Shown in pieces: positions 50,775-53,700 of a stretch of 64,000 nt of DNA (its first letter is position 1; each line of letters begins with the position of its first letter). Origin of the DNA: Escherichia coli. GTDB taxonomy: Bacteria; Pseudomonadota; Gammaproteobacteria; Enterobacterales; Enterobacteriaceae. The DNA lies in assembly GCF_029227855.1 (NCBI RefSeq), contig NZ_CP074356.1. The stretch is one strand, 5' to 3'. Position numbers: made by a program.

Positions 50775-53700
50775 TAGGCTGCCCAGGCCGTTCCGACTCT
50801 ATAAGGACACGACAATGACGATTTTTGATAATTATGAAGTGTGGTTTGTAATTGGCAGCCAGCATCTGTATGGCCCGGAAACCCTGCGTCAGGTCACCCA
50901 ACATGCCGAGCACGTCGTTAATGCGCTGAATACGGAAGCGAAACTGCCCTGCAAACTGGTGCTGAAACCGCTGGGCACCACGCCGGATGAAATCACCGCT
51001 ATTTGCCGTGACGCGAATTACGACGATCGTTGCGCCGGCCTGGTAGTGTGGCTACACACTTTCTCCCCGGCCAAAATGTGGATCAACGGCCTGACCATGC
51101 TCAACAAACCGTTGCTGCAATTCCACACCCAGTTCAACGCGGCGCTGCCGTGGGATAGCATCGATATGGACTTTATGAACCTGAACCAGACTGCACATGG
51201 CGGTCGCGAGTTCGGCTTCATTGGCGCGCGTATGCGTCAGCAACATGCCGTGGTTACCGGTCACTGGCAGGATAAACAAGCCCATGAGCGTATCGGCTCC
51301 TGGATGCGTCAGGCGGTATCTAAACAGGATACCCGTCATCTGAAAGTCTGCCGTTTTGGCGATAACATGCGTGAAGTAGCGGTCACCGATGGTGATAAAG
51401 TTGCCGCACAGATCAAGTTCGGTTTCTCCGTCAATACCTGGGCGGTTGGCGATCTGGTGCAGGTGGTGAACTCCATCAGCGATGGCGATGTTAACGCGCT
51501 GGTCGATGAGTATGAAAGCAGCTACACCATGACGCCTGCCACACAAATCCACGGCGAAAAACGCCAGAACGTGCTGGAAGCGGCGCGTATTGAGCTGGGG
51601 ATGAAGCGTTTCCTGGAACAAGGTGGCTTCCACGCGTTCACCACCACCTTTGAAGATTTGCACGGTCTGAAACAGCTTCCTGGTCTGGCCGTACAGCGTC
51701 TGATGCAGCAGGGTTACGGCTTTGCGGGCGAAGGCGACTGGAAAACTGCCGCCCTGCTTCGCATCATGAAGGTGATGTCAACCGGTCTGCAGGGCGGCAC
51801 CTCCTTTATGGAGGACTACACCTATCACTTCGAGAAAGGTAATGATCTGGTGCTCGGCTCCCATATGCTGGAAGTCTGTCCGTCGATCGCTGTGGAAGAG
51901 AAACCGATCCTCGACGTTCAGCACCTCGGTATTGGCGGTAAAGAAGATCCTGCCCGCCTGATCTTCAATACCCAAACCGGCCCAGCCATTGTCGCCAGCT
52001 TGATTGATCTCGGCGATCGTTACCGTCTGCTGGTTAACTGCATCGACACAGTGAAAACACCGCACTCCCTGCCGAAACTGCCGGTGGCGAATGCGCTGTG
52101 GAAAGCGCAACCGGATCTGCCAACTGCTTCCGAAGCGTGGATCCTCGCTGGTGGCGCGCACCATACCGTTTTCAGCCATGTGCTGAACCTCAACGATATG
52201 CGCCAGTTCGCCGAGATGCACGACATTGAAATCACGGTGATTGATAACGACACCCGCCTGCCAGCGTTTAAAGACGCGCTGCGCTGGAACGAAGTGTATT
52301 ACGGGTTTCGTCGCTAAGTAGCCGCATCAGGTGTGTAACGCCTGATGCGACGCTGACGCGTCTTATCAGGCCTACACGCTGTGATTTTGTAGGCCGGATA
52401 AGCAAAGCGCATCCGGCATTGTTTTCCCCCTCGCCCCTTTGGGGAGAGGGCCGGGGTGAGGGGAAACGACCTCTCAGGAGTCAACATGTTAGAAGATCTC
52501 AAACGCCAGGTATTAGAAGCCAATTTGGCGCTGCCAAAACATAACCTGGTCACGCTCACATGGGGCAATGTCAGCGCCGTTGATCGCGAGCGCGGCGTCT
52601 TGGTGATCAAACCTTCCGGCGTCGATTACAACGTCATGACCGCTGACGATATGGTCGTGGTCAGCATCGAAACCGGTGAAGTGGTTGAAGGAACGAAAAA
52701 GCCCTCCTCCGACACGCCAACTCACCGGCTGCTCTATCAGGCATTCCCGTCCATTGGCGGCATTGTACATACGCACTCCCGCCACGCTACCATCTGGGCG
52801 CAGGCGGGCCAGTCCATCCCGGCGACTGGCACCACCCACGCCGACTATTTCTACGGCACCATTCCCTGCACCCGCAAAATGACCGACGCAGAAATCAACG
52901 GTGAATATGAGTGGGAAACCGGTAACGTCATCGTCGAAACCTTCGAAAAACAGGGTATCGACGCAGCACAAATGCCCGGCGTCCTGGTCCATTCTCACGG
53001 CCCATTTGCATGGGGCAAAAATGCCGAAGATGCAGTGCATAACGCCATCGTGCTGGAAGAGGTCGCTTATATGGGGATATTCTGCCGTCAGTTAGCGCCG
53101 CAGTTACCGGATATGCAGCAAACGCTGCTGGATAAACACTATCTGCGTAAGCATGGTGCGAAGGCATATTACGGGCAGTAATGACTGTATAAAACCACAG
53201 CCAATCAAACGAAACCAGGCTATAATCAAGCCTGGTTTTTTGTGCACAGAAAACCCCCAGCTAGGCTGGGGGTTCCGGAAAGCTTTCAGCTTTAAGCCAG
53301 TTATTAAAACCCCTTTTGATTTGTTAAAACACCTTGCGGTCTGGCAACTGCAAGTGTCAAACAAGAAATCAAAAGGGGGTCCCAATGGGGAACGAAAAGA
53401 GCTTAGCGCACACCCGATGGAACTGTAAATATCACATAGTTTTTGCGCCAAAATACCGAAGACAGGTGTTCTACAGAGAGAAGCGTAGAGCAATAGGCAG
53501 TATTTTGAGAAAGCTGTGTGAGTGGAAAAGTGTACGGATTCTGGAAGCTGAATGCTGTGCAGATCATATCCATATGCTTGTGGAGATCCCGCCCAAAATG
53601 AGCGTATCCGGCTTTATGGGATATCTGAAAGGGAAAAGCAGTCTGATGCTTTACGAGCAGTTTGGTGATTTGAAATTCAAATACAGGAACAGGGAGTTCT

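Follow-up and report, generated by a model that had tools for sequence, protein, structure and literature searches.

BoxC (TMECO) as a polymorphic occupant of the araA-araD spacer in the araBAD operon of Escherichia coli

BoxC and related palindromic repeats

The interspersed repeat first named BoxC, later the potential intrastrand triplex (PIT) element and then TMECO, has been described in several studies of Escherichia coli (Bergler 1992; Bachellier 1999; Hoyne and Maher 2000, 2002; Holder et al. 2015 (PMC4666352)). A length of 56 bp has been quoted for BoxC (PMC2267715). Strain MG1655 was listed with 23 TMECO copies, and 63 TMECO loci were reported for the pan-E. coli genome (Holder et al. 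2015). For Enterobacter asburiae a figure of 143 BoxC copies has been given. The present analysis deals with a copy of this repeat in the spacer between araA and araD, within the araBAD operon, on a 64,000-nucleotide stretch of E. coli DNA (RefSeq assembly GCF_029227855.1, contig NZ_CP074356.1). This whole stretch is called the window below, and all coordinates refer to it; unless otherwise indicated, features lie on the + strand, which is the sense strand of the araBAD mRNA. To our knowledge, no function has ever been found for BoxC.

Members of the BoxC family are intergenic, occur in multiple copies and are polymorphic in presence among strains. The araD copy is like them in these respects and shows no structural difference, and the extra segment that carries it (57 nt) is close to the quoted family size. 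The araD copy lies inside an operon, abuts a bacterial interspersed mosaic element (BIME) and occupies a site that is empty in K-12. Repetitive extragenic palindromic (REP) sequences, and the BIMEs formed by them, are short extragenic palindromic repeats too, and BIME units hold the equivalent position in araA-araD alleles without BoxC. REPs stabilise mRNA (REP-mediated mRNA stabilisation). REP/BIME units are simple palindromes with the REP consensus, whereas the araD BoxC is three-armed and lacks this consensus.

Identity of the araD element

A preliminary description, made from the sequence alone, had placed the second copy of a GC-rich palindromic repeat at 52426-52465, between the REP/BIME units following araA and the araD start. 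The sequence of this interval is ccccctcgcccctttggggagagggccggggtgaggggaa, letter for letter as quoted there, and both the palindromic character and the position inside the operon spacer are borne out; this spacer runs for 168 nt from the araA stop (52317) to the araD ATG (52486). A probe of 21 nt from the element, searched with up to 3 mismatches against the whole window, matched at two sites only, starting at 46987 and 52443, both on the + strand, while none of 100 shuffled sequences gave a match. The published TMECO pattern, 5'-CCCTCNCCC N3-6 GGGNGAGGG N3 GGGNGAGGG-3' (PMC4666352), was likewise matched exactly at 46972-47006 and 52428-52462, both on the + strand, nowhere else in the window and in 0 of 100 shuffles. 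The repeat thus has exactly two copies in the window, as had been proposed. The boundaries given for the araD copy point to the right place and are slightly narrow: the palindrome spans 52419-52469 and the extra segment 52419-52475.

The BoxC/PIT/TMECO core of the araD copy (52428-52463) consists of one C-rich and two G-rich arms: C arm CCCTCGCCC (52428-52436), loop 1 CTTTG (52437-52441), G arm 1 GGGAGAGGG (52442-52450), loop 2 CCG (52451-52453) and G arm 2 GGGTGAGGG (52454-52462), followed by one G. TMECO copies with TTA in loop 2 are classified as type A and those with CCG as type B, and the central base of the C arm is T in perfect copies and G in 'mm' copies (PMC4666352). With CCG in loop 2 and G as the variable base of the C arm, the araD copy is of type B and of the 'mm' kind. 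TMECO no. 3 of MG1655 (Table 1 in PMC4666352), the copy that Holder et al. (2015) took for in vivo footprinting, has an identical 36-nt core. The copy at 46972-47007 is of a different subtype, type A 'mm'. Neither the family name, nor the three-armed build, nor the difference in subtype between the two copies had been noticed in the preliminary description.

The likeness to other copies extends into the left flank. The araD copy and the K-12 type B copies share GGCAy-NN-TTTTCC in register, the flank GGCATTGTTTTCC of the former aligning with GGCACGCTTTTCC and GCCATCTTTTCC of the latter; K-12 type A copies have longer common flanks (aaaGCGCAC...GTC on the left and GAACAGGCC.GCAC on the right). 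When complete E. coli genomes were searched by megablast, other loci matched the araD copy over 52422-52466 only. Fourteen K-12 BoxC copies were fetched and all 14 are intergenic, as are both copies in the window.

It could be argued that the element is a chance GC-rich palindrome, or a part of the adjacent REP/BIME and no separate element, since it directly adjoins a REP, the tail of which shares the first bases of the element (GGCAT). This explanation, to which we assign a practically negligible probability, is refuted by three observations. Two pattern sites were observed against none in the shuffles, which excludes a chance origin; empty alleles hold the entire REP without the element; and the same core is found at unrelated K-12 loci, with a REP nearby in only one of 14 cases. 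In addition, REP consensus arms (GCCGGATG / CATCCGGC-type) were not found within 52419-52475, the REP-type arms stopping at 52418. The sequence comparisons make it almost certain that the araD element is a copy of the known interspersed repeat BoxC/PIT/TMECO.

The araA-araD copy is not among the 23 copies of MG1655, because the insertion site is unoccupied in K-12. It may be one of the 63 pan-E. coli loci; a search of the supplement of PMC4666352 for araA, araD, thiQ and yabI returned nothing. A literature search in a limited collection that combined araA, araD and 'repetitive extragenic palindromic' found no paper. In Rfam (E up to 10, 46000-54000) no family was found for the araD element. 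The matches in the spacer are weak hits to the REP-derived naRNA4 (52299-52372 and 52392-52451), anchored on the REPs; the second (E = 0.83, below the gathering score) starts in the last REP and enters the element as far as 52451.

Insertion and distribution in E. coli

Alignment with K-12, D10 and FELIX_MS772 showed that 57 nt at 52419-52475 stand in place of CGA in the empty site GGCA|CGA|AGGAG; with the empty site restored, the sequence would read GGCACGAAGGAG. E. albertii, another Escherichia species and K-12 have ...GGCACGAAGGAGTCAACATG at this site, and ...GCATCCGGCACGAAGGAGTCAACATG forms the end of the spacer in E. albertii (114 nt), Escherichia sp. MOD1-EC7003 (284 nt), the E. coli species representative (369 nt) and K-12. 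Because E. albertii, MOD1-EC7003 and K-12 share the empty junction, BoxC at araA-araD is derived, having been inserted or exchanged for the earlier sequence within E. coli. In K-12-type alleles the empty junction comes after one 85-nt BIME unit or several of them. The spacer measures 114 nt in an empty allele with one BIME and 168 nt with BoxC. The left junction lies in GGCA, common to the REP tail and the flank of type B copies, and may reflect microhomology. The six bases CCTCTC (52470-52475) between palindrome and Shine-Dalgarno sequence are absent from empty alleles. No donor locus was identified: among complete E. coli genomes no other locus had the REP-BoxC junction or the right flank CGACCTCTC. 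The 8-mer GAAACGAC, shared with the lldD-trmL spacer, was considered as a clue to the donor and discarded, as by a rough estimate such a match is within chance expectation.

Among the 5426 complete E. coli genomes, 1565 (~29%) covered a 96-nt junction probe, 1514 of them with at least 99% identity; NZ_AP045174.1 and the O111:H11 strain 88.0502 are examples of carriers. With a 201-nt probe 1567 genomes were found; 17 carriers were sampled from these at even spacing, and each was collinear over the probe in a single piece. BoxC at araA-araD is now a common presence/absence polymorphism in E. coli, and the uniformity of its carriers agrees with an allele that arose once and is stable in structure. 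Since BoxC has been described before and occupies this site in such a large fraction of genomes, the finding is real but ordinary. The observation matters little for this locus; the element is a catalogued repeat at a common polymorphic site.

Two assemblies labelled MG1655 (NZ_CP025268.1 and NC_000913.3) disagree at araA-araD, one having a spacer of 114 nt with one BIME and the other of 284 nt with three. Either a 170-nt BIME contraction took place in a laboratory lineage or one assembly collapsed.

DNA structure and stability of the locus

TMECO was proposed to promote genomic instability (Holder et al. 2015 (PMC4666352)). Applied to araA-araD, this would mean that the G-rich strand folds into a triplex or hairpin during replication or repair and stalls polymerases, making the locus hypervariable. 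The G arms form a mirror repeat and, together with the C arm, allow the G*G:C, A*A:T and T*A:T triads of H-DNA and purine-motif triplexes. Indeed, a type B mm oligonucleotide identical to the 36-mer of the araD copy was found to form a very stable intrastrand purine-motif triplex in vitro, with a melting temperature of ~70 °C, by circular dichroism and nuclear magnetic resonance (NMR) (PMC4666352). As single-stranded DNA the araD BoxC can presumably do the same. However, the triplex was formed by the single-stranded oligonucleotide only and not in duplex DNA, and was not detected in vivo by dimethyl sulfate footprinting (PMC4666352).

The same study found TMECO loci to be more variable than control intergenic regions among 56 E. 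coli strains, and the araA-araD spacer is polymorphic as well, with lengths of 114, 168, 284 and 369 nt. This length variation, however, is confined to the alleles without BoxC, which have 1 to 4 tandem BIME units, while the BoxC-containing allele is uniform by both the identity and the collinearity of its carriers. The araA-araD locus thereby goes against the published idea of destabilisation by TMECO, and action at the DNA level is regarded as unlikely here.

Predicted folding of the transcript

At the RNA level the C arm is predicted to find its better partner in the distal G arm: CCCCTCGCCCC / GGGGTGAGGGG form 11 bp, one of them a G.U pair. With the proximal G arm there would be a G.A mismatch, and the predicted RNA fold takes the distal pairing. 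An inverted repeat lies at 52424-52437 / 52453-52466. In the minimum-free-energy (MFE) structure the left flank TTGTTT (52419-52424) pairs with the right flank AAACGA (52464-52469), which lengthens the palindrome to 51 nt. The BoxC stands in the C-G-G orientation in the araBAD mRNA, and the predicted hairpin core ends about 10-12 nt upstream of the araD Shine-Dalgarno sequence. The folding energy of the element region is -30.3 kcal/mol for the + strand and -26.5 kcal/mol for the - strand, in which the G.U wobble turns into a C.A mismatch. The folding tools used consider Watson-Crick and wobble pairs only, and no triplex.

The stability of this hairpin was considered as a sign of selection on the element and rejected as such: against composition-matched shuffles its z-scores are only about -0.4 to -1, so that the energy alone is not evidence of selection. 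Only the whole araA-araD spacer of the window is significant (-83.4 kcal/mol, z = -4.7). Inspection of the copies in Table 1 of PMC4666352 gave no compensatory signal to count between the arms, because arm 1 varies in its base (T or G) against a constant A in arm 2 and T in arm 3.

An alternative is that the element controls translation of araD, either as an RNA G-quadruplex or by masking of the Shine-Dalgarno sequence by CCTCTC, and thereby tunes AraD relative to AraA. The G-rich half, GGGGAGAGGGCCGGGGTGAGGGG, has four runs of at least 3 G with loops of 2-3 nt and fits the G-quadruplex motif, the element ends 12 nt before AGGAG, and in the MFE fold CUC (52471-52473) is paired to GAG within the Shine-Dalgarno sequence. 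Yet the C arm is a competing partner of the G tracts, and for the DNA oligonucleotide a quadruplex was excluded by NMR (PMC4666352). Furthermore, the pairing with the Shine-Dalgarno sequence comprises just 3 bp, and the arrangement AGGAG-N5-ATG is the same in BoxC-containing and empty alleles, AGGAGTCAACATG at this position being conserved in every Escherichia allele compared. Translation control is accordingly given little credence.

The araA-araD spacer in other Enterobacteriaceae

AraD was used as query to fetch the locus from 80 Enterobacteriaceae species, and the 79 araA-araD spacers that could be recovered were classified by motifs. REP-like elements alone were present in 40/79, and an additional spacer combined a REP-like element with a match to the T-run motif. 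BoxC/TMECO-like elements were found in 14 spacers (Pseudocitrobacter, some Enterobacter, the Klebsiella oxytoca group, Kluyvera and others); often two copies form an inverted pair, of which the araD-proximal one is oriented as in the window. BoxC and REP were combined in a single spacer, that of Kluyvera georgiana. In 13/79 (Leclercia, Silvania, Lelliottia, Phytobacter and Franconibacter) a T run comes after a G/C hairpin. The remaining 10 mostly have other hairpins, two of them having essentially no spacer.

Folding was evaluated for the 77 surveyed spacers that reach 30 nt and for that of the window; z was below -2 in 69 of these 78 and the median was -3.7. A strong stem-loop at araA-araD is therefore nearly universal in the surveyed Enterobacteriaceae, while the element that provides it differs by lineage. 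What is mildly new here is this interchangeability: one intra-operon spacer is taken up by BoxC, by REP or by a terminator-like hairpin in different strains and genera.

The hairpins of Leclercia, Silvania, Lelliottia and Phytobacter hold the same position as the araD BoxC and have a strong G/C stem, followed by a T run that the araD BoxC lacks. In the spacers of this class a hairpin of ~50 nt, GGCCTGCC-GCAG-GGCGGGCC, and then TTTTTT directly precede the araD Shine-Dalgarno sequence inside the operon; the one T-run locus checked with a scanner was found to be terminator-like. With 13 other Enterobacteriaceae having such hairpins here, attenuation before araD is plausible in principle, and the araD BoxC might be thought to act as an internal terminator or attenuator, or as a promoter, that separates araD from araBA. 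However, on neither strand does a T run come after the stem, and 52200-52600 held no Rho-independent terminator-like site on either strand, AAACGACC coming after the stem; nor did this interval contain sigma-70 promoter-like sites (-35/-10 hexamers with 16-18 nt spacing). PIT elements were negative for terminator and promoter activity and had no effect on RNA polymerase or conjugation, as far as these experiments are recounted in PMC4666352 (citing, for the former, Hoyne and Maher 2002). We consider a terminator or promoter role highly improbable.

In Klebsiella grimontii and Klebsiella michiganensis the spacer includes a C-C / G-G palindrome that is nearly perfect, cccctcaccctctcccc...ggggagagggtgagggg. 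It resembles what is left when an inverted BoxC pair is reduced by deletion to a hairpin-forming sequence, which has been described as the 'palindrome effect' (Holder et al. 2015 (PMC4666352)).

A possible role of the araD BoxC

In view of the nearly universal hairpin in this spacer, the likeliest role of BoxC is that of one more intercistronic stem-loop. The element carries no gene, and an extra stem-loop in the araBAD mRNA is inferred to be the only plausible molecular consequence at this site, as is likely for REP/BIME units by analogy. The 57-nt replacement probably arrived once in the E. coli lineage, at the junction of the last REP and the araD ribosome-binding site. BoxC would be transcribed within the araBAD mRNA, where its C arm would pair with the distal G arm to yield a stable stem-loop. 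By analogy with REPs, this structure may act like the adjacent REP hairpins and the BIME units that it replaced, slowing 3'-to-5' exonucleases and partly uncoupling araBA from araD. On balance the consequence is probably slight or neutral, the stem-loop being redundant with the REPs or nearly neutral in itself. Taken together, a known BoxC copy that arrived once and is transcribed as an intercistronic stem-loop of small or neutral net effect is what we hold to be probable. That the stem-loop has any measurable effect at all is conceivable, with the balance tilting somewhat against it.

Several points weigh against a stem-loop role. Composition-matched shuffles fold about as stably as the 72-nt element region (RNA z = -0.44 for the + strand and -0.63 for the - strand; DNA z about -1). 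In K-12 some copies are sense and others antisense to transcription, the copy in the pstA-pstB spacer being an antisense one, and Holder et al. (2015 (PMC4666352)) reported no orientation or gene-class bias of TMECO copies; the mixed orientation and the lack of bias speak against an RNA function common to the whole family. Finally, a structured spacer in nearly all relatives could merely mean that this is the operon's one permissive landing site.

A stronger proposal would be that the araA-araD junction is under selection for a strong RNA stem-loop, a position filled convergently by REP/BIME, BoxC or a terminator-like hairpin. If true, BoxC would have an RNA role interchangeable with that of REP, setting the AraB/AraA:AraD ratio via segmental mRNA stability or attenuation. 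We regard this proposal as rather doubtful. The natural pair of alleles, with and without BoxC and with the same ribosome-binding site, is suited to testing the effect of BoxC on a polycistronic mRNA.

The first copy and its relation to REPs

The other BoxC copy of the window, with TTA in loop 2 (46972-47007), lies in the thiQ-yabI spacer. Its core is identical to those of K-12 TMECO nos. 9, 16, 19 and 22, and in Rfam it gave only a chance-level match to Antizyme_FSE. K-12, F11 and strain 108 have a REP pair where the window has this BoxC, so that BoxC and a REP pair are alternative occupants at thiQ-yabI. The spacer (46956-47030) has been replaced as a whole and not merely interrupted. This allele of the window was found in only 253 of 5426 complete genomes.

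Both copies in the window suggested that targeting or replacement of REPs might be a general mechanism of BoxC insertion. When the 14 K-12 copies were inspected for a REP motif at up to 250 nt, one had a REP nearby, and the idea was rejected. This sole copy, TMECO no. 19, lies inside an operon in the pstA-pstB spacer (NC_000913.3, 3908295-3908730), where it is antisense to pst transcription, and presents a second case of an intercistronic spacer with BoxC and REP.

Flanking genes

The 500-amino-acid open reading frame (ORF) at 50815-52317 (stop codon 52315-52317) is the coding sequence of araA, encoding L-arabinose isomerase. The label was taken from record NZ_AP045174.1, which is 100% identical across the region; further E. 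coli records, with up to 100% identity to the region, carry the same araA and araD annotation. Directly 3' of the araA stop follows one BIME unit (52318-52418) with four REP inverted repeats, which aligns with the 85-nt tandem units of K-12-type strains. From the sequence and the inverted repeats the start of the first REP can be placed ~5 nt past the stop codon, within 52318-52325. Stalling of ribosomes at termination has been reported for REPs so near a stop codon. The araD Shine-Dalgarno sequence AGGAG (52476-52480), read from the sequence, is the same as in the empty allele. By reading frame and annotation, araD (L-ribulose-5-phosphate 4-epimerase) extends from the ATG at 52486 to 53181; its translation of 231 amino acids returned relatives with 90-98% identity.

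Downstream of araD, the araD-polB spacer (53182-53933) measures 752 nt compared to 74 nt in K-12, the difference being a copy of IS200C. The identical record has tnpA annotated in this spacer and contains 24 places that match the query. Rfam gave a strong match to STnc490 at 53252-53375 (146 bits), inside IS200C and upstream of the ORFs listed at 53334-53843; STnc490 is presumably the 5' end of IS200.

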